Source of the DNA: an uncultured Chloroflexia bacterium | GTDB taxonomy: Bacteria; Chloroflexota; UBA6077; JACCZL01 | Length of the DNA stretch: 64,000 nt | Assembly (NCBI GenBank): GCA_963765765.1 | Contig: CAVXYC010000016.1 | Location: forward strand, 14,151 to 78,150 | Direction of reading: 5' to 3' | Shown here: positions 4,340 to 59,304 of the stretch, piece after piece | How positions within the stretch are numbered: position 1 is the first letter of the stretch | Layout: each line of letters starts with the position of its first letter | Position numbers and translations under genes: made by a program | Notes under the pieces: generated by a model | Told to the model about the DNA's origin: nothing | The model's database searches: none | The model's input: the letters and a program-made list of their open reading frames with translations, nothing else

Positions 4340-6590
4340 CTAGGAAGCGGGCGCGAGATGTTTCGCCGTCAATGAGTCAGGGACGCCGAGGAGGTCGCGA
4401 GGAGTGCCCGCGAATACCACCTCACCGCCGCGACTGCCACCCTCCGGACCCATGTCGATGATCCAGTCGGCGTTGCGGATCACATCCAGGTTGTGCTCGA
4501 TGACGATCACGCTATTCCCGCTGTCCACGAGACGGTTCATAATCGCCAGCAGGTGGGTGATGTCCGACATATGCAGGCCCGTTGTCGGCTCGTCGAGCAC
4601 GTAGACGCTACCTTCCTTATGGAGCTCACTGGCCAACTTGATGCGCTGACACTCGCCGCCCGAGAGCGTGGAAAGCGGCTGTCCCAGGGTCAGATAGTCC
4701 AGGCCGACGTCGCTCATCGCCTGAAGCTTGCGGCGGATCATTTTTTGATGGAAGAACTCCAACGCCTCAGCGACGGTCAGTGCCAGCACATCGTTGATGG
4801 ACTTGCCGTCAAGCTTGTATGCCAGGACCTCGTCCTTGAATCGACGCCCTCGCAGATCTCGCAGGGAGTCTTGATGCCATCGAGAAATGCCAGGTCCGTG
4901 TAGATCACACCAGAGCCCTTACAGTTCTCGCAGGCGCCTTTTGAGTTGAAGCTGAACAGACCCGCATCAGCTTTATTGGCACTGGCGAACGCCTTCCGGA
5001 TGTCGTCCATCACGCCGGTGTACGTGGCTGGGTTTGATCGTGAAGTGGTTCCGACCGCTGATTGATCGATCACAATCGCTTCCGGATGCTGGCGCAGAAA
5101 CACGTCCTCGATAAGCGAGCTCTTGCCCGACCCCGCCACGCCGGTGATGACTGTCAGCACGCCCACGGGAATATCCACGTTGACGTCCTTCAGGTTGTTT
5201 GCGCGCGCATTCCGCACGGGAAGCGTTCCCGCGGGCGCCCGCACGTCTGTCTTCATGGGCAGTGAACGCTGAAGATACTGTCCCGGTGAGCGTGTCCGCC
5301 TTCAATAGATCCTGGAAGCTGCCTTCGAAGACGATCTCACCGCCCGCGGTCCCGGCATGAGGGCCAACATCGACAATGTGATCGGCTCCCTCGATGACAT
5401 CGCGATCGTGCTCCACCACCAGTACAGTGTTGCCCTTGTCGCATAGCTTTCGGAGTAGCTCATTCAGCCGATGCACATCGCGCGGATGGAGACCAACGCT
5501 CGGCTCATCAAAGATGTACATCACGTCAACCAGGCTGCTTCCCAGGTGCTTGACCATCTTGACGCGCTGCGATTCACCGCCCGAGAGAGTGTCAGTCTCC
5601 CGATTTAGACTCAGGTACTCCAAGCCGATGTCGGCCATGTGCTGCAGCCGCTCCACGAGGGCATCGACCATCGGCGCGGCAACGGAGTCGGTGATCTCCC
5701 GAAGGACCGGGATCAGATCGCCGATCTCCATGCTCGACAGCTCGGCAATGTTGCGACCGTTGATTCGACAGCTCAGCGTGGCCTGGCTCAGGCGGGCTCC
5801 TTTGCAGAGCGGGCATGGCTGAGGCCTGATGTACGGCGCGACGGCCTTCTGGGTGCGCTCGGAAAGCGTCTTGAGGTCGCGACGCACATACGACTTCTCA
5901 ATCTTCTCGATGATGCCCATATACGTGGCGTTCATCGTGGTGGCATCGCCTATCTTCAGCGGGTACTTGCGCGGCTTGCTATAGAGCAGCAGGTCCAGCT
6001 CTTCAGGTGTGAAGTCACCAAGCTTCTTGTCGTTGTCGAAGAACCCGGACGCCGCGTACCACTTGGACTCCCAGGAGGCGAAGAACGGCACCTGGATGCC
6101 ACCATCATTAATTGACTTGGAGTAGTCGAGAAAATCATCGGCAATCACCCCGAGCTTCCTGCCGATGCCGTTGCACTCCGGGCACATGCCCTGCGGATCA
6201 TTGAACGAGAATGCGTTGGAGTACCCTATGTGAGGCTGACCGACGCGAGAAAAGAGCAGGCGCAGAAGCGTGTAAATGTCAGTGATCGTTCCCACCGTGG
6301 AGTGTGACCCGCCACCAAGCCGCTTCTGGTCCACGATCACCGCCATACTAAGGTTCTCAATGGCGTCCGCGTCCGGCTGCGGGTACCGGGGCAAGAAATT
6401 CCGGACGAACATGCTGAAGTTCTCGAAGAGCTGCCGCTGCGCTTCGGTGGCGACCGTGTCGAAGACGATTGAGGACTTGCCCGAGCCCGAGACGCCGGTG
6501 AAGATGGTGATCTTCCGTTTCGGAATCCTGAGCGACACGTTTTTCAGGTTGTTCTCGCGCGCCCCCGCGAATCTCGATGTATTCGGACAC
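4340..6590 (-). CDS. uvrA: UvrA-family ABC ATPase, DrrC/UvrA2-like paralog (several frameshifts)
   Basis: [19 protein letters not shown], Zn fingers, LSGGESQR, second [27 protein letters not shown], spread over four ORF pieces. Confidence 0.85.
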
Positions 6591-49803: not shown

Positions 49804-50951
49804 CTACGAACTCGTTGTCTCTACGACCTGCACCACCCGCTTCTCCTTCAGGTGCCGCTCCGCTTCAGCGAAGTAGTCGCGCACGTCTCCCTGCGATCGT
49901 ATCCAGCTCAAGTAGCGCTCGATTCCATCGCTGATCTCTACGGTCGGCTCATAGCCGACGGATCGTATGCGAGTGATGTCGGAGATCAGATGCCGCATCT
50001 CACCCGGTCGGAATTCACCGGGGATCGATGGCTCGATGTTGATCCCCAACCCGTCCGAGACCATACGGGCGATTTCGCGGATCGTGGTCGCATGCCCGCT
50101 GCCTACGTTGACAGGTTGTCCGTCCAGCACGTCCGAGCTGGCGGCGAGCAGATTAGCTCGGGCGATGTCGTCGACGAAGCACAAATCGCGTGATTGCGCG
50201 CCATCTTCGTAGAGCACCGGCGCCTGGCCGCTCAGGAGGCGCGTGGCGAAGATCGCAATGACTCCCGTGTACGGATTGAAGATCGATTGGCGTGGACCAT
50301 AGGTGCACGAGTAGCGAAGAGCCACGGTTGGGATTCCGGTTTGATTTCCCCAGGCCAGCACCGTTTTCTCCTGGTCCACCTTGGTAATCGCGTAGACGGT
50401 TTCCCCGCCCACTGGCATCCTCTCCGGGGTGGGAGCCGGCATGGTGATGCCGTCGCAACAAGGGCAGTGCACGTGAAAATCACCGCGGCGGAATTGATCT
50501 ACCGGCCGTACCGGCGGAAAGACCAGGCCGTGCTCGGGACACCTGGCGGCACCCTCGCTATAAACGGCCTGAGATGAGGCGACGAGTACTTTCTTCACCG
50601 GCAGTCGATCGTCGCGGATGATCTCCAGCATCTGTGCCGTGCCGAAACTATTGACGTGAAAGTACTTGCCCATCTCGGGCATGTAGCCGCCATACGCAGC
50701 TTCGTGGAAGACAAAGTCGATTCCCTGGAGTGCCGCGCGAACCGTCTCCGCATCGCGGATATCACCCTGGACGAGCTCAGCTTGATCGTTGACCCAACCG
50801 GGCTTGCCAAGTCGGTGCGTCTGAGGCTCGAAATTGTCCAGAATGCGCACGCGCCAGCCGTCTTCAATAAGGAGATCGACGATGTGCGAGCCGATCAGCC
50901 CCGCTCCCCGGTGACGAGCGCCGCGGGCCGAGATCCGGCGTGGGGAATCAT
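49804..50951 (-). CDS. NAD-dependent epimerase/dehydratase (N-terminal frameshifts)
   Basis: LVTG..GLIGSH, ASSQAVY, YAITK, NPYTGV, RPGEMRH; ATG overlaps upstream stop (TGATG). Confidence 0.88.
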
Positions 50952-51652
50952 CAAACGCGCCCCATTACAGGCGTCGCAGCTAGTGCAGTTAGGGCCGACT
51001 TCGTGAACGGCAGGTCGGAACGTGACCGAACAGCGTCGATCAGGTACCCGAGATCGTCCTCACAGTCCACGTCAAACGTCGGTTCCATCAGGGCCAAAGA
51101 TACGCCCTGAAGATCCGCCAGGCAGACGATGTCGCGAAGCACAGTGTTCGTGCTCATGGGGATGCAGCGCAAGACGTCTCGCCAGATGCGCATGCCGATG
51201 AGATAGTATCCGCCATCGAAAGTCGGCCCTAGCACCACGTCGTGATCGTCCAGCGTGTCGAACGCATCGTCGATCATCTCTTTTGTGATCTGGGGTGAGT
51301 CTGAAGCAATCAGCAGAGTACGCCCTTCACCGCGGCTCTCCATCGTTTGAAAGAGCCAGCGTTGTCGATCGGTCCAATTGCCGGGCGGCTGCGTGATGAC
51401 TCTCGGTGCGCTTGACTGCTGATCCAACAGTACGCCCAGTTCCAGCCAGGCGTCGGCAGGCGTGACATACCAGCCCAGCTCATAGTGGCTGCTGTGCAGG
51501 TTGGCTGAGAGATCCCGCAGAAACGCTTGGTAGAGGGAAATCGCGGCGGACTCACCGACACTCAATGCAAGTCTCGTCTTGGCGAGTCCCGGCCTGGGTG
51601 CTTTCGCGGCCGCATACAGCGTTCGCCGCGGTAGAGTCGCGGTAGGGCTCAT
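50951..51652 (-). CDS. DUF2064/TIGR04282-type GT-A fold (CofC-like) transferase
   Basis: AKAPRPGLAKTRL, LIASDSP, VLGPTFDGGYYLIG, FDVDCEDDL; ATGA overlap with upstream gene. Confidence 0.88.
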   Translation of the reverse strand: MSPTATLPRRTLYAAAKAPRPGLAKTRLALSVGESAAISLYQAFLRDLSANLHSSHYELGWYVTPADAWLELGVLLDQQSSAPRVITQPPGNWTDRQRWLFQTMESRGEGRTLLIASDSPQITKEMIDDAFDTLDDHDVVLGPTFDGGYYLIGMRIWRDVLRCIPMSTNTVLRDIVCLADLQGVSLALMEPTFDVDCEDDLGYLIDAVRSRSDLPFTKSALTALAATPVMGRV

Positions 51653-54600
51653 GAGCCAATCTCCGCACTGGAGCCTTCCACTCGCTCGGTCACCTCCGCT
51701 TTTCCGGGCACGCGCAACGTAACCGAGCGCGCGATCGGGTTGCCAGTGATCCGCAGTCTGGCGCCATCCCATGCGAGGGAGGTGCCGTCGTACAGGGTGA
51801 ATCCAGCGCTACCGGCACCACCGGGAGCAATGCGCACGATCAGGTCATGCTGGTATGACCGAACACCCGGTGCGGTGGTTGGAGCAAAGGTGTCCACGTC
51901 GGGAGCCAGTGGAATAATGGCGCCGGCGCGAATGAACGCCGGTGCGCCGGCCGCCATCCAGCGGGGCAGGCACCGTAATATCACGCTCGCCCTCGTATAT
52001 TTGATCCGTCCAGAAATCAGACCCACGAGCCGCTCGGGAGATATAGCGTACGGGTCGTGGCACCCGCCTCCACCACGGGCGCTACGAGGATGTCCCGACC
52101 GAAGAAGTAGCTCTGTTCCACTTCCCACGCTCGTGGGTCGTCCAGCGCCTCCAGCGGCAAGTAGCGCATGAGCGGCAGGCCGGTGCGAGTTGACTCAGCT
52201 ACGGTGCTATAGATGTAGGGAATCAGGCTGTTGTGTATCCGAGCGGCATCGCGAAAAGCCGTCCGGTTCGTCTCGTCCAACCACAAATCCATGGGCGCCA
52301 GCGGATAGTCGCCATACTGGTCACGCAGTGTGCTGCTCCACGTGCCGAGCTGCAGCCATCGCATCCAGAGCTCGCGCTCCTGCTCACTCGGTAGGCCCAC
52401 CTGCACGTAGCCGCCCACTTCGGGGTGCCAGTACGGGAAGCCGCTCAGGCCAAAGGACAGAGCGGCTGGTATGAGCGAGCGTAAACCGGACGGCGCCTCC
52501 CATTGCATGGTGGGATCACCCGGCCATTGCAGACTCTGGTACTTCTGCGCTCCGGCCGCGCCACTACGGGCGAACAGCAGGAAGTCTCCATTGGGTCGAA
52601 TAGCCGAGGCGTGCTGCCAGGCGTGTTGTGCGTAGAGTAGTGGGTAGCGATTGTGCGCCTGCTCACCGCTGCTGCCATCAGCCATCACGGCGCTGGGCGG
52701 TAGAATCTCACCCACGTCCAGCATGCCGCCGTCATAGCCAAGATCACCCAGTGCTCGCTGCCATAGGCCGCCCCACCAGTCCACCGCGGCGGTATTGGTG
52801 AAGTCCAGCCAGGTGACCGGAAATCGTTGGTGCTGCAGCAGATCTCCATTGGGCCCTTTCACCAGGAATCCGCGCTCGGCGGGCACCTCCCAGCCAGGCC
52901 GGTCCAGATGGAAATCTGCTTTGAAATAGGTAAGCGCCTTGTAGCCGAGCTGGTGCAGTCTGTCGGTGAACCCGACGTGATCGGGATATGGACCCGCAGC
53001 TCGCCCCGCGTAGTTGACGTAAGGCCAGCCGATATTGGCTTGGTAGTCCACGGAGTCATACGCGTATACCGCTGATACAGGGATCTGCATCTCGCGCAGC
53101 CGCTGCATCTCATCTAGCACGTGACCCTGCCCGCCCGTACTGGTCTTGATCACACCAAATGCCCAGATCGGAGGGCGTGGCGGCAATCCGGTCAGCGCGG
53201 CGTGCTGCTGCACCAGCTCCTTCAAGTTGCCGCCGTAGCTGACCACCAGGTCAGCCTGACCGGACTGCTGCTCCCATGCCCAGCGATCGGGGCGCGTCGC
53301 CGCGAGATCAAATCGGGCGCGTTCGCTTCGCTCCAGCAGCAGACTGTGTCCGCGGCTCGAGAGCAGCAGCGGAATCGGCGCGTAGGTGCTCTCGCCGTGT
53401 TGGCGCGAGGATCCGATCGTCGGCCCAGACGTCGACCAGCTTGCCGCGCTGATTCACGCCCGTGAATCGCTCGCCGAAGCCGACGAAGCGCTCGTCCGAG
53501 GGAGCGACCATGCTGCCTCCGACGCGCTGAAGTGGGGCCGGACCCGACGGGCTCACACTAATGCGCGCTGATCGCAAGTTCACCGAATGAAGGTCGACAT
53601 TGATAGTGCGGCCTGTAGGGTCGTCCGTTGCCGCGATCAGTCGCGTGCCGCCGTCAGGCAGCGGCTCAATCGCACGTAGACGTTGCGCGCGTCGCCAGAA
53701 GCCATCGGCTGATTGGAACCCGATCGGCTCACCGGGCGCCTCTTCCCACAGCGCCGATCTCGATGGACTGAGGAGGCGCATGCGCCACGGATCAGGGGAC
53801 ACTTCAAGTGAGAGCTCTCCCAGCGCGATGCGCCGCGGCTCGGGCTGATCGACGGACGCCGACCAGCTAACAAATTGGCGCAGCGGGACGCCTGGCACAT
53901 CGATTGTCACGACCTCACCGGCCTGCCATTGCTCTGGCGGATACCACCAGAGGCCGGCAAGATCACTTGTGGCCAACGTTGTGCCGTCACTCAACTGCAC
54001 ACGAACGGTGGGCGAGACCCAATCGGGTAGTTGCCCATGTGCCCGCCAAGTCGTTCGAAGGCGGCCGCGTGGACCGTCCGGCTCAACTGCACCGTCAGGG
54101 CTTGGAATGAGCTGTCCCGATACCAGCTCCAGCGTTCCGCCGAGGTACGACTCCAGCGCTGGATTTTGAGCGCTGGTAGCGTCGCGGACAAAGGAGAAGA
54201 ACTCTTCAGGAATGCAGCGTGCCGCGGTGCAGGCGGCTGCACCTTCCGCTTCTCGTCGCAGAAGGATCACTCCGTCGCGGGCCGTCTCAATGGACCACTG
54301 GCCGCTCTCGAGCATGGAGCTGACACGGAGATAGACATCACCGGCGCTCGTGGGGGCTGGACTAGATGCTACGTCGATTAGTGCGTAGTCAGCGTCCTCG
54401 ATTGCGGGAAACACGTAGATAGCGGCACGTTGGCTCACATGTGGATAGAGCGACGCCGTTGCGGTGACTCGCGCGTCCGCGGGAATGCCTGCCGCGATGG
54501 CACGTGCCGTCACGCCATGCGAAGTAACTTCTGCCGGGGAATAGTTCGCGGCAAGCGGGCCGGCGCCCGACTCTATGTACGCGAACGTGGAAGTGGCCAT

Positions 54601-55774
54601 CAATCCCGCGGCTGCGGCCCCAGGAAGGAAGCGGAGCGATGCACGAGCATTGTTCGAGGTCAGGCGCGTGAGGAGACCCAACCCGCTGGCGGCTCCGATG
54701 ACAAGGAACGGCAGCATAAGAGCCGAGTAGTGTGCCCTGCCGGCGGACATCCACGGGGAGCTGGAGAAGACGTTCATCGCGAGCAGGGGAAGTGCAGGAG
54801 CCAGACTGAGCGGCGCCAGCACACCCAACCAGCCGCCGCTGAGCACGATGGTCTGCAGATACTCCGTTACGGGAGCTTGCCGCAGCGCCTCGAAAGCTGA
54901 GGATGGTCCGCCAAATAGCGACGCGTAGCGGACGACGAACGGCGATGCCGCGCCGCCCCCGTAAACGCGCATGATGGCCAGGTCGACCCCCGCCCAGAGG
55001 ATTCCCAATGCAGCCAACAGCATGCCGGAGACGCCATCGTCCCGAGAGCGCGACCACGAAGCCCAGCCCCGCCGCAGCGATTGCCGCGTCTTCACGCGCG
55101 CTTGCTGCCAGCATCGCCGCGCCCAGGGCCATCAGGATTTGGCCGGCGACAAATCGCTCCGCGGCAAGCATCAGCAGAGGCGCAGCCAATGCTGTGGTAT
55201 GGAAATCGGACAACACGGCCCATTGTCCAAGGGGCGAGAGCAGCCACGTGGCCGCGATAGCGAGTCCTGCGAGCGAGCTTCCCGTCAGACGCCTGGCAAG
55301 TCGATGTGCCGGAATGGCACCCAACGCAAAGATCACTGACTGGATGACCAGAAGATGCTCTGGGCCTCCTCCCAGTGCGTAGACGGGAGTGAAGAGCACG
55401 AGCATGGGCTCAACGTGAAACGCATTGAGTGAATTGGGCGATCGGATCTTGCTGATGTCAAGCTCGGTGTTCCAGGATGCGCCCTGATACACCGTCATCT
55501 CGAACCATCGACCATGGAGCATGTTCCAAATCACCTGATCTGTGAACCCGAGGTCCTCAGCGTGCGTGCCCAGCGCCTGATGCCGCGTGAGCGCCAGATT
55601 CGTGAAAGCCACGCACCAGATTCCGATGGCGGCTAGCAGCACGGAAGCGGCCCAGTAGCGGGTGATGCTTAGCGAGTGAAGGGACGTACGGGACCGTGCG
55701 TCGGCCGCTTCGCCAACCTGGGGTTGGTGCATTTCCCCGACGCCCAGAACGCGTCGAAGTGAACTGGCACTCAC
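51649..55774 (-). CDS. Fusion: DUF2079-like membrane domain + GH31 glycoside hydrolase (about 1375 aa, several frameshifts)
   Basis: EDLGFTDQVIWN, HVEP, DFH, RED, HYSA, IP..A.V.A...PH.SQR (DUF2079-like); FVGFGERF, PPIWAFG, LDFTN, GGMLDVGE, WPGD, DILVAPV (GH31). The junction lies within one uninterrupted ORF (53308-55095). Confidence 0.75.
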
Positions 55775-56502
55775 CCCGCGATTGCCTGATGAGACTCCGC
55801 CATCGGCGGACGCCACTGTGCGTACTTGAACGCACAGGAAGTCAACTTCCAAGCAGCGCCAGCGGAGCCCCGAAAGGTGCCCGAGACCTTCGAGCGCCCC
55901 CCTAAACGGGCACGGTAGGAGATGGACACGTCACTGATGCGAAGTTTCAGACGTATCGTCTTGACCAGCATTTCCGTGGTCCAGCCGTAGGTCATCTCCG
56001 ACATGTGAAGTTGATGAAGCGTGTCAATTCTCAGTGCCTTGAACGATGGCAAATCAGGGAGTCGTTGTCCCGTCATAGTTTGAAGCGCACCGAGCACCAG
56101 CCTGTTGCCGAGGCGAGCGTGAATGGGCAAAGCGTCCGGGCTTGAGCGCATGTCGCGAACACCCAGCGACAAGTCCGCGCTACCGGAGATCAGCGGCGCG
56201 AGGACTGATGGAAGCGCTCCGGGCGGGTCGGAATAGTCGCCATCAAGAAATGCGACGATCTCCACCCCGAGCTCCGCGGCACGTTGCGCCCCTGCCCAGC
56301 ACGCTGCGCCGTAGCCGATGGCGTTATCGTCGACGACTTCAGCGCCGTGTTCACGAGCAATACGATCAGTTCCGTCGGTCGAATGGCCGCATACGACAAT
56401 GGTCCGCTGCACAATCCCACGAGGCACTTCATCTAGGACGGGGCCGATGCAATCGGACTCGTTCCAGGCTGGAATGACCAACGCTACAACAGGATCTGAC
56501 AC
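55771..56502 (-). CDS. GT2 glycosyltransferase (polyprenol-phosphate glycosyltransferase-like)
   Basis: IPAWNE, STDGT, GYGAAC, FLDGDYSD, TYGWTTEM, R.GGRSKVSGT. Confidence 0.9.
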   Translation of the reverse strand: MSDPVVALVIPAWNESDCIGPVLDEVPRGIVQRTIVVCGHSTDGTDRIAREHGAEVVDDNAIGYGAACWAGAQRAAELGVEIVAFLDGDYSDPPGALPSVLAPLISGSADLSLGVRDMRSSPDALPIHARLGNRLVLGALQTMTGQRLPDLPSFKALRIDTLHQLHMSEMTYGWTTEMLVKTIRLKLRISDVSISYRARLGGRSKVSGTFRGSAGAAWKLTSCAFKYAQWRPPMAESHQAIAG

Positions 56503-56661: not shown

Positions 56662-57502
56662 ATGATGCCCCTCGAAGCGTCCTTTCTGGTCGCGTTCGCC
56701 GGTGGAGTACTCTCGCTGCTCGCGCCGTGCAGTGCGCTCCTGCTGCCGGCGATTTTTTGCATATGCATTCACATCACGCACCGAGCTTCTCGGACGGACA
56801 CTACTGTTCCTCGCCGGACTCTGTACGGTGTTCATCCCACTGGGCCTCGGGGCCTCATTGGTCGCTGCCCTGCTGCTGGACTACCGCGAGACCACGATCA
56901 TCATGGCGGGAAGCCTGCTAATTGCATTCGGAGTGGTGGAAATCCTTGGCGGTGGTTTCTCGCTCGCGCCCCAGGGGCTGGCCAACAGGTTTCAGGCTGG
57001 ACGCTCCGCCACCGCGGCGTACGCAACTGGCCTGGTCTACGGGATTTCGGGGTTTTGCGCCGGCCCCCTTCTGGGAGCGGTGCTCACGGTTGCGGCGACT
57101 TCGCCGAGCCCACTAATTGGCGCGATGCTCCTCTTTACCTATTCATTCGGCACGGCTTTGCCGCTCTTTCTCATCGCATGGCTATGGGATCGATATCAGC
57201 TCGGGTCGAAGGCCTGGCTTCGCGGGCGCGTCATCCGCGTTGGTCCAGTACAGACGCACACGACCAGTCTCATCGCGGGCCTGCTCTTCATCTGCTTCGG
57301 AATCAGCTTCATCGTGTTTCAGGGCGCATCCGTGCTGAGCGGGACGTATGCGAGCCTGGGTCTCGAGGAGCTTGGATTCCGATTGCAGACTCAGCTGCAA
57401 GTCGCGCTGGCAAGATCGCGGGGGTGGGCGCTTATAGCAACGGCCGTCATTCTGGCATTGCTTGGTCTGGCCGTTCGCCAGCTTCGGGCGCTACATGCTT
57501 AG
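56662..57502 (+). CDS. CcdA/DsbD-like membrane disulfide transporter (frameshift near 56755)
   Basis: GGVLSLLAPCSALLLP and FCAGPLLG cysteine motifs. Confidence 0.82.
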
Positions 57503-59304
57503 CCCGGGCAAATGCGCAGGGTAGACGCCTCTCCCGGAGTGAGAGTCAGCGGGATGCCGGAAATGAGTGTGACTCCGCTCACCGAACGGTCCACGCCGTT
57601 GCTGCTCACGGTGTAGGCGGCGTTCGGCGTAGCGGTGAACCATTCCATCCACTGGTTGAGCCGTGGATAATCACTCGGCAAGCCAAGATTGTCACGGTGC
57701 CGTTCGGTATCTACCATCAGTGAGCCGCTCCAGGCGCGCCCCGCCGCGGCATGGAGCAGAAGACAATCGTCTAAGCGAGCCGCGCCCAGCTGCAGACCCG
57801 GCTCCCACGGCTCCAGGCGTGTCCCCTGAGTGAGCCACAGCCCGTAGAGAAGTGTGGTTCGGATGAAGTTCCCATCGATGTTTTCGTCCGTTACGCGACC
57901 ATCGTCTTGCTGGAACCCGAAGAGCGTTCCCATGGCGTGATGCAGCCACGCAACGGCATCGGGATCAGGAATTGTGCGGAGCACGTAAAGCGCACTCTCG
58001 ATGGTGTCGGCATAACCGTCCATGGTGCCGCTATCCCAGGGGTAATCGCCAGTCCGCGCGACGGCGGCAAAGGCTCGGCGCGCGGTTTCCTCGTATCGCT
58101 CGGCGAAGGTCACATCCCCTCCGGGGAGCTGGCGCTCGATGTCCGCCTGGTTTAGATAGGCCTGTGCCAAATAGCCCCAGTTGTCCGTCAAATCAGAATC
58201 GCGAACGCGACCTGACGGAACGTCGATCAGCTCATACCAGAGCCCTTCCGGTGTCCGACCTTTTGTGATAAGTCGATCCAAGAGTTCTCGAATGGCCTTG
58301 CGATGGTGAGTCACGTCTGGCGATCCAATTTCGATTTCCACACGGTGCCACTCGATCAGCCCAGAGACCACCTCGTTCCCATGGTCACCCAGAAAGAATC
58401 GGCGGGGGCCAATCGGCTCGTTCTCGATGAAATCCCAGCGGTGCGCCGGGATGTCCTCAGTTGCGAGAAGCTGCCTATCGAGATAGGCTCTGGCCGTACG
58501 CTCGCCCATCTCTATGTACTGGGTGTCCCGGGTTCCCCAGTAGAGCCGCGAGAGTACCTGGAGAACGTTCCCATTGATCTCAGCGGAGCTGGCCACAATC
58601 GGGCCCTCGCGCGTCGGCGTATTGGCCGCGTCAATGTAACTTCCTGTCACCTGGGTCATCCGTCCTAACCACGGGGTCCGTCCAAGCATTTCGACCATGG
58701 GGAGGAGACCGTCTTTGGTGTACTCCGTGGCGCCGAGAAACACCTTCTCCTCATCCTGGACTTCGGCGGGATCCGAGGACAGGGCAATATCGCGCGGGAG
58801 GCCGGGGGAACGTCGGCGCTCGGCCGAAAGCGTATTCAAGATCTCGTCATAACGTTTGGGCATTAACAGCTTTGCGCCGATTGCTAGGAACGGGAAGAGG
58901 TCCGATGCGGCGTCTTCGTACGTCCAAACACGGCCATCTGGCTTCAGATTGGTGGGGAAGAGTCCCGTCGCAGCATCGCGATGATCGAGCCAGTAACTCG
59001 TGACACGGGCCGCTCGAGCGAACGCGTCACCGCCCAGAACCGCATGAACTCGCGCCAGGGCGCTGGTGTCACGAGCGGCAACAGCATCATTGCGCTCGGC
59101 AAGGAGCCGTTCCCTGGTTGGCGCGTCGATGGTCCCGCCGTCCGGCCGCCCCCATCGGCTCTCACTGGGGCGCAGCGTACACGCCGTGAGGAGAGCAGCG
59201 ACAAGGAGGAGCGAGAGAGGCTGAAACATCGGAATCCGGATCGAGATGCAACCACCGGCCGGTGACGGAGAGGGAATCGCGGATGATACCGGCCCGCACA
59301 TCAT
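57499..59304 (-). CDS. Hypothetical lipoprotein, possibly (alpha/alpha)6-barrel glycosidase-like
   Basis: Long intact ORF, LLTAC lipobox, helical repeats with acidic/aromatic motifs (DAASD, EYTKDGL, DHGNE, DNWGY, DGYAD); start uncertain. Confidence 0.6.
   Translation of the reverse strand: MMCGPVSSAIPSPSPAGGCISIRIPMFQPLSLLLVAALLTACTLRPSESRWGRPDGGTIDAPTRERLLAERNDAVAARDTSALARVHAVLGGDAFARAARVTSYWLDHRDAATGLFPTNLKPDGRVWTYEDAASDLFPFLAIGAKLLMPKRYDEILNTLSAERRRSPGLPRDIALSSDPAEVQDEEKVFLGATEYTKDGLLPMVEMLGRTPWLGRMTQVTGSYIDAANTPTREGPIVASSAEINGNVLQVLSRLYWGTRDTQYIEMGERTARAYLDRQLLATEDIPAHRWDFIENEPIGPRRFFLGDHGNEVVSGLIEWHRVEIEIGSPDVTHHRKAIRELLDRLITKGRTPEGLWYELIDVPSGRVRDSDLTDNWGYLAQAYLNQADIERQLPGGDVTFAERYEETARRAFAAVARTGDYPWDSGTMDGYADTIESALYVLRTIPDPDAVAWLHHAMGTLFGFQQDDGRVTDENIDGNFIRTTLLYGLWLTQGTRLEPWEPGLQLGAARLDDCLLLHAAAGRAWSGSLMVDTERHRDNLGLPSDYPRLNQWMEWFTATPNAAYTVSSNGVDRSVSGVTLISGIPLTLTPGEASTLRICPG

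Follow-up and report, generated by a model that had tools for sequence, protein, structure and literature searches.

A Chloroflexota gene that joins a DUF2079 membrane domain and a GH31 glycosidase domain in one predicted chain

In the endoplasmic reticulum, the glycosyltransferase family 2 (GT2) enzyme ALG5 makes dolichyl-phosphate glucose, the GT-C enzymes ALG6, ALG8 and ALG10 add α-glucose, and glucosidase II, a member of glycoside hydrolase family 31 (GH31), removes it. GT2 polyprenyl-phosphate sugar synthases and GT-C transferases both act with inversion, and GH31 enzymes are retaining α-glycosidases or α-transglycosidases. Three-component extracytoplasmic glycosylation systems that include a GT2 and a GT-C enzyme are also described (GtrB/GtrC, ArnC/ArnT, PpgS/Rv3779 and MtxS (Rv0539)/MtxT (Rv0541c)), and we know of no glycoside hydrolase domain on GtrC, ArnT, Rv3779 or MtxT. 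MtxS is described as the maker of a lipid-linked donor (PMC12088412) and MtxT as the protein that transfers the lipid-linked sugar (PMC8780516); Rv0541c is listed among the GT-C enzymes (PMC3229680), and glucosidase II is described as removing the two innermost glucoses (PMC3103398). Here we describe, in a 64,000-nucleotide stretch of DNA from an uncultured soil Chloroflexia bacterium (contig CAVXYC010000016.1 of assembly GCA_963765765.1; the whole stretch is called the window), a gene on the minus strand at 55774-51649 that joins a DUF2079 membrane domain to a GH31 domain.

The gene comprises about 1373 codons and encodes, in order, the DUF2079 membrane domain, that family's soluble domain, a short linker and a complete GH31 domain. 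We put at roughly 0.6 the probability that its product is a single bifunctional envelope enzyme of about 1373 residues, in which sugar transfer and GH31 action would be combined. Five overlapping open reading frames (ORFs) span 55852-51649 on the minus strand. According to Pfam, the N-terminal half of DUF2079 lies in ORF 54389-55852, and ORF 53308-55095 runs unbroken, as the initial annotation had claimed, from the C-terminal half of DUF2079 (PF09852, profile 241-459, 83.2 bits; cut-off 28.2) into the GH31 N-terminal domain (PF13802, residues 517-560). The latter match, at 23.4 bits, is under the 27-bit cut-off because of a frame break; the same domain scores 48.7 bits in the relative from genome G004. 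The GH31 TIM barrel and C-domain follow in the next frame, in ORF 52017-53246 (PF01055, 162.6 bits; cut-off 23.5), which also holds the motifs GGMLDVGE (52730-52707) and LQWPGD (52532-52515). In tblastn, the closest full-length relative, P0008, aligns contiguously over five pieces (53-255, 257-823, 825-1286, 1285-1308 and 1309-1405); no stop interrupts the frame, and no break costs more than one residue. Reading through requires four frame corrections, all +1, rather than one or two, and the single gene proposed at the outset is borne out. The read-through product of 1372 residues, with X placed at the breaks, agrees with the earlier estimate of about 1375 codons and is 57–59% identical to P0008, P0189 and P0198 and 44–48% identical to seven further fused proteins. 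The overlaps with neighbouring genes were likewise read correctly: the end of the GT2 gene upstream and the GTG start at 55774 run into each other as GTGA, and the start of the DUF2064 gene downstream runs into the TGA at 51651-51649 as ATGA, overlaps that tie the gene to both neighbours. Two separate genes are ruled out, since the junction lies within one open frame, stop-free in the window, and intact fused frames exist in relatives.

These relatives came from 31 genomes (G000, which carries the window, included) searched with ORF 53308-55095, of which 14 gave a match. Intact fused open frames were found in three other genera (1441 codons in G004, 1512 in G003 and 1572 in G007), the unpublished genome G006 has both halves in a frame of 1147 codons that is cut short by the contig, and all four Pfam families occur in one chain in each of these four genomes. 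In G001, of the same genus as G000, the gene spans two contigs overlapping by exactly 127 bases. Within family f1 the fusion is present in six of ten genomes; G005 has a stand-alone DUF2079 protein, no match was found in the three f1 genomes of genus g2, and the fused form was found in none of the 21 genomes outside f1. A search of a large protein collection with the junction region gave 12 matches, eight of them full-length fusions of 1408–1620 residues with PF09852 and the GH31 families, named either 'DUF2079 domain-containing protein [Chloroflexota bacterium]' or by JGI glycosidase labels. Four more proteins with both families are among the 120 GH31 matches listed, and three further entries that start within the DUF2079 soluble domain are probably partial fusions. 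Public databases hold at least 12 fused proteins, full or partial, under automatic labels only. Among the best 150 of 7,699 DUF2079 representatives, five exceed 890 residues: two with GH31, two with DUF3048 and one with nothing else. In the ESM Atlas the matches were to clusters of DUF2079 or of PMT_2 alone, with scores of 0.79–0.81, too low to count, and none combined the two families of the fusion. In the literature searched we found no paper that mentions DUF2079 or DUF2064 and, among those listed and by title and abstract opening, none on a GT-C/glycoside hydrolase fusion; the two papers that name both GH31 and GT-C look unrelated on the same basis. The initial annotation knew of no described example, which holds for papers, although databases already contained fused proteins with automatically assigned names. 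We thus regard the fusion as real, but rare and undescribed in print.

For the family at large we also noted that the two DUF3048 proteins, P0069 (1023 aa) and P0149 (915 aa), carry the N and C domains of DUF3048 appended C-terminally to DUF2079, a second type of C-terminal addition in this family, that G000 encodes three further DUF2079 paralogues (C15:511355-512479, C14:96116-97000 and C7:172158-172997), and that a DUF2079 match turned up in only one of the 14 named control genomes, that of Sulfolobus acidocaldarius, which may offer a species that can be cultured for work on the family.

The DUF2079 part is predicted to have a GT-C glycosyltransferase fold. PF09852 covers profile positions 1-458 at 205.5 bits in the intact G004 relative, and an AlphaFold model of its residues 1-690, built with 85 sequences, has a mean predicted local distance difference test (pLDDT) value of 90 and a predicted template modelling (pTM) score of 0.90. 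When this model was compared with the PDB by Foldseek, ranks 1-36 were all GT-C enzymes (E 2e-6 to 5e-3, TM 0.18–0.48), among them STT3/OST, ALG12, ALG9, EmbC, AglB, PglB, ArnT, AftD, DPY19 and AftA, in support of the earlier suggestion that DUF2079 proteins resemble GT-C transferases. Past the first membrane helix, a short helix holds residue D41 (G004 numbering), which is conserved to 90% or more across the 85 sequences; H87/E89/P90, E195 and, in the soluble domain, R439, D457 and D490 are also near-invariant there. The motifs matching these residues are kept in all 11 fused proteins, the window's included, as is AEDLGFTDQ, so that the conserved acidic residue sought in the first outer loop is present (D41), with the loop itself placed outside by inference. 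Comparison of helices with loop charges gives about 11 membrane helices, with the N-terminus and three Arg/Lys-rich loops on one side and the conserved motifs and C-terminal domain on the other, a pattern that would correspond to N-in, C-out over the 11 helices.

The two parts meet within ORF 53308-55095, where the matches of stand-alone DUF2079 relatives end at residue ~401-436 and those of stand-alone GH31 relatives begin at ~402-424. Most of the β-rich linker described at the outset is therefore no linker but the soluble domain of the DUF2079 family, which stand-alone relatives have too, and the true linker measures about 10 residues in the window. Among the fused proteins this tether varies from ~0 to ~110 residues and is rich in Pro, Ala and Ser. 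In a second model, of G004 residues 395-1437, overall pLDDT is 92.9 and the tether is disordered (pLDDT 28–49 over model residues 234-267). The PDB matches listed for this model are all GH31 enzymes (E down to 4e-60); hydrolases and transglycosylases are equally close by fold, and GH31 specificity is not readable from the sequence. The C-domain family PF21365 scores 50.3 bits in the window, and all 11 fused proteins, the window's among them, retain both GH31 catalytic Asp residues. Both also align with those of YihQ, which we take to be D405 and D472; its structure 5aed is the nearest solved one by sequence (E 3.9e-52). The C-terminal part is thus predicted to be a complete GH31 retaining α-glycosidase, with N-terminal β-sandwich, TIM barrel and C-terminal β-sandwiches. 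When the stand-alone GH31 relatives with 39% identity or more were examined, 35 of the 54 began with a Tat-like RRxFL signal, the remaining 19 being mostly truncated, partial fusions or proteins with other hydrophobic N-termini; in a more distant GH31 group only one protein has a Tat-like signal. Because the stand-alone relatives are mostly Tat-like and the loop charges give C-out, the GH31 domain probably sits outside the membrane.

Set beside GH31 enzymes of known structure (YihQ-type sulfoquinovosidases, the α-xylosidase YicI, the Listeria cycloalternan-forming enzyme, the α-transglucosylase Agd31B and the dextranase FjDex31A), the predicted domain shares their fold and catalytic Asp pair; those enzymes are soluble and, among the matches listed, have no DUF2079 domain. 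EmbC and AftD, both among the fold matches of the membrane part, are built in a similar way, with a large C-terminal part outside the cytoplasm that follows a polytopic GT-C core. Their outer domains are non-catalytic, that of EmbC being a lectin-like carbohydrate-binding module (PMC3044687), whereas the flexible tether here leads to what is predicted to be an entire enzyme that has kept its catalytic residues.

Three flanking genes lie on the same strand. Upstream is the GT2 gene (55771-56502, minus strand, 243 aa), whose stop overlaps the fusion start; a GT2 gene thus adjoins the start of a gene for a GT-C-fold membrane protein, and the same two enzyme types occur in the three-component systems, of which the Gtr-type one has a GT2 synthase, a flippase and a GT-C transferase encoded together. 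Downstream, a DUF2064/TIGR04282-like gene (50951-51652, minus strand) with a CofC-like nucleotidyltransferase fold starts at ATG 51652 on the fusion stop, and a gene for an NAD-dependent sugar epimerase/dehydratase (49804-50951, minus strand) shares one base of its start with the DUF2064 stop; in the latter, a 1-base deletion in a G run at ~50906-50909 severs the Rossmann N-terminus (MIPHAGSRPAALVTG...) from the rest (...GAGLIGSHIVDLL). The same order, with GT2 upstream and DUF2064 and the epimerase downstream, is found in G001, and all three genes stand upstream of the fusion in G007. In G004 and G003 the fusion is preceded by DUF2064 and a radical SAM/SPASM gene, with a GT2 gene close by on the opposite strand in G004, and the stand-alone DUF2079 orthologues of G005 and G025 are likewise preceded by a radical SAM/SPASM gene. 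Near the fusion in G004 we further noted a membrane-anchored, sulfite-oxidase-like molybdoenzyme (Oxidored_molyb, Mo-co_dimer; L011:10477-12267) that follows it, which a G007 ORF (L013:4976-7000) resembles closely enough at its C-terminus, and by that alone, to look orthologous, and a DUF5010/GH99-like protein (L011:13055-14242) that adjoins the GT2 gene.

From these parts a scheme can be proposed. The neighbouring GT2 enzyme would load a sugar onto polyprenyl phosphate at the cytoplasmic face, and the activated sugar may be provided or altered by the products of the DUF2064 and epimerase genes. Once the loaded lipid has flipped, the DUF2079 domain would pass the sugar on, with inversion, to an acceptor in the envelope on the outer side of the membrane; as both steps invert, the product should be α-linked. 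The tethered GH31 domain, also outside, would act on α-glycosides of the same glycan, and since GH31 enzymes act on such linkages it could trim the membrane domain's addition or move it on by transglycosylation. The building and editing of a surface glycan would then take place in one chain. The scheme recalls addition and trimming in the endoplasmic reticulum, in that the same three enzyme classes (GT2 neighbour, GT-C fold and GH31) occur in the same logical order; chains of glucosidase II match the window's GH31 domain (E ~1e-16 to 1e-18), and ALG12 and ALG9 are among the fold matches. Unlike here, where GT-C and GH31 parts would form one bacterial chain, the enzymes of the endoplasmic reticulum are separate and act at different stages, and we treat the likeness as an analogy of logic, not as orthology. 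The wider proposition, that DUF2079 and the exported GH31 clade make up a bacterial pair which adds an α-linked envelope sugar outside and then trims it or passes it on, after the logic of ALG6/8/10 and glucosidase II, is a tentative one that we hold to be possible but rather doubtful.

Several observations, here and at the frameshifts treated below, weigh against a bifunctional envelope enzyme. The best families of the window's GT2 protein are polyprenyl/dolichyl-phosphate sugar synthases (AglJ, dolichyl-phosphate hexose transferase and PpgS), all of them below their cut-offs, and the DUF2064 gene scores 125.9 bits against a cut-off of 134, compared with 167.9 for its G004 orthologue. No flippase gene was identified in the operon, in a survey that made no search aimed at flippases. 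Both fold models were built on the G004 relative, which is 47% identical to the window protein, and the N-in, C-out topology was read from loop charges on model helices rather than computed, a crude hydropathy scan of the read-through product having been too noisy. G005 and G030 have a DUF2079 orthologue, yet their GH31 proteins, encoded elsewhere, are only 31–34% identical, and the stand-alone GH31 orthologues of G025 and G028 adjoin a DUF4388 gene and not a DUF2079 operon, which indicates that the two activities are not always linked. The two trees that bear on their history, one for each domain, were made with FastTree only, with open forks and with fragment rows excluded.

These last points bear on the alternative that the fusion is real but merely anchors an exported catabolic GH31 α-glycosidase, with the two domains acting on unrelated substrates. 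It would suit the close stand-alone GH31 relatives, which are Tat-exported enzymes, the position of the stand-alone GH31 genes examined (G025, G028) outside DUF2079 operons, the retention of DUF2079 without an orthologous GH31 protein in G005 and G030, and a disordered tether of ~0 to ~110 residues, which implies no fixed docking. We consider it unlikely, though a serious contender, as a single membrane helix would suffice for anchoring and the fused form has been kept in five genera of one family, in two sequence groups. The fusion genomes also have no second orthologous GH31 protein: in four of four tested the fused gene was the sole GH31 match at E ≤ 1e-20. Moreover, the products of inverting GT-C enzymes and the substrates of retaining GH31 enzymes share, on established knowledge, the α configuration. 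In G017, G025 and G028 both parts exist as separate genes, with GH31 proteins 60–61% identical to the window's. In both trees the fused group P0001-P0007 branches first and the window's group (P0008, P0189, P0198, P0035 and P0200) is nested among stand-alone forms, which is compatible either with one old fusion followed by splitting or with two fusions; both would point to a functional link.

A bifunctional enzyme also presupposes that the gene is intact, and in the window it is broken into five frame pieces, all on the minus strand. Piece 1 (55031-55774) encodes the N-terminal half of DUF2079 (PF09852, profile 1-179, 93.9 bits); it begins at GTG 55774, with an alternative ATG at 55732, continues into the first membrane helix and first outer loop, and carries the motifs AEDLGFTDQ (55561-55535), FHVEP (55420-55406) and RED (55102-55082). 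It ends at frameshift 1 (55029-55030), where one surplus base moves the tblastn frame between 55031 and 55029. Piece 2 (53404-55029) encodes the C-terminal half of the DUF2079 membrane part, the soluble α/β and β-sandwich domain and the start of the GH31 N-terminal β-sandwich, with the motifs WWYPPEQW (53949-53926) and ERFVGFGERF (53493-53464) and, at 53868-53830, the junction SWSASVDQPEPRR. Frameshift 2 (53400-53403) is CCAA, four bases in place of one codon. Piece 3 (52020-53399; PF01055, PF21365) holds the remaining GH31 N-domain and the (β/α)8 barrel and runs into the proximal C-domain; its GGMLDVGE contains the catalytic nucleophile and its LQWPGD the acid/base residue, both of them Asp. 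It is closed by frameshift 3 (52019-52020), where one surplus base creates a TGA after ...LPSGSWV. Piece 4 (51947-52018) has only 24 codons, DFWTDQIYEGERDITVPAPLDGGR, and frameshift 4 (51946), again one surplus base, leads to piece 5 (51649-51945), with the C-terminal β-sandwich domains of GH31 and the TGA stop at 51651-51649.

Errors in the consensus of an assembly prone to indels, and not gene decay, are the most likely source of the four +1 frameshifts. In the same assembly rpoB has matches in three frames inside ~700 bases (G000:C20:327266-327928) and uvrA falls into three open frames (G000:C20:424314-427273), while rpoC is a single intact open frame; by arithmetic on the match coordinates, all nine shifts in rpoB, uvrA and the fusion gene are +1, with one surplus base each. 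As a check on read support, contigs of four other soil runs were aligned to 51600-55900, most of which they leave uncovered. A 196-base contig of run X1 is without one base at 55029 (site 1) and a 151-base contig of run X3 is without one base at 52020 (site 3), so that two of the two covered sites, of four in total, are corrected by short contigs at least 98% identical. An X2 indel row at 54943, which matches over just 32 bases and is loose at either end, was taken to stem from another organism and ignored, and programmed frameshifting was set aside, given that essential genes are shifted alike and that the short contigs are without the extra bases. On the other side, sites 2 and 4 are covered by no read or contig (site 4 lies just beyond the X3 contig, whose end is 51950), so that real lesions are possible there, and at sites 1 and 3 the correcting contigs are shallow, at a depth of only 2.5–2.6, and may come from the window's own sample. 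G001, of the same genus, has a frameshift of its own in a C5 run of the GH31 barrel (L015:1100-1135, G001:C538); it may stem from a true lesion or from a mistake of assembly, and could mean that the gene is decaying in the genus.

That the copy in the window is a true pseudogene, with all four frameshifts real and the fusion protein no longer made in this organism, would agree with four shifts within 4.1 kb, with the two sites that have read support in neither direction and with the C5-run frameshift of G001. It is nevertheless quite improbable, given that essential rpoB and uvrA bear the same type of +1 shift in this assembly, that both covered sites are corrected and that the gene shows no in-frame stop, deletion or loss of a conserved motif; all 11 fused proteins, that of the window among them, retain the outer-loop and catalytic motifs, apart from one G-to-S change beside the nucleophile in P0198. 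We therefore prefer to read the window copy as one error-damaged gene, and it should be annotated as such and not as four or five small ones.

Single-base insertion errors are frequent in this assembly, and split genes here should not be called pseudogenes without read support. Besides the epimerase gene, two other split genes were seen in the window. A DsbD_TM/CcdA-like membrane gene (56662-57502, plus strand) is apparently divided over two frames, with its N-terminal part in ORF 56662-57723 and a Pfam match from profile position 48 in ORF 56702-57502, and a uvrA-like paralogue at 4391-6568 (G000:C16:18541-20718) consists of five UvrA-family pieces across three open frames.

A further alternative, that the GH31 domain is sulfoquinovosidase-like, serving a C6-modified (for instance sulfonated or thio) α-sugar at a locus that handles an unusual sulfur sugar, draws on the six best PDB sequence matches, all YihQ-type (5aed, 5aee, 8r56, 5ohy, 5ohs and 6pnr; E 4e-52 to 3e-44), on the sulfite-oxidase-like molybdoenzyme after the fusion in G004 and probably G007 and on the radical SAM/SPASM genes before it in G003 and G004, but it is very improbable, as neither of those genes adjoins the fusion gene in the window and, unlike in YihQ-type enzymes, the sulfonate-binding motif Q/E-R-W-Y of sulfoquinovosidases (so defined in PMC12780224) is not kept, only its Tyr aligning (Q288 is replaced by Y, R301 by P and W304 by a gap). 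Such an activity is unlikely rather than excluded, because a sulfoquinovosidase lacking the RWY motif is reported in the same paper.

If the DUF2079 domain and its GH31 partner do form one bifunctional envelope enzyme, the finding would bear chiefly on the DUF2079 family, a large one with 7,699 representative clusters at E ≤ 0.001. To our knowledge it would be the first bacterial case of a lipid-dependent membrane glycosyltransferase and a glycosidase in one chain. That DUF2079 occurs in nature joined to an enzyme whose chemistry is known limits what it can do, and the α-glycosides on which GH31 enzymes act have the configuration expected from an inverting, lipid-sugar-dependent GT-C enzyme. 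The soluble GH31 domain should be easily expressed and assayed, so that the sugar of the operon could be identified through it. The repeated joining or splitting of the two genes in Chloroflexota would then amount to a Rosetta-stone link and would provide the first functional handle on the DUF2079 family.

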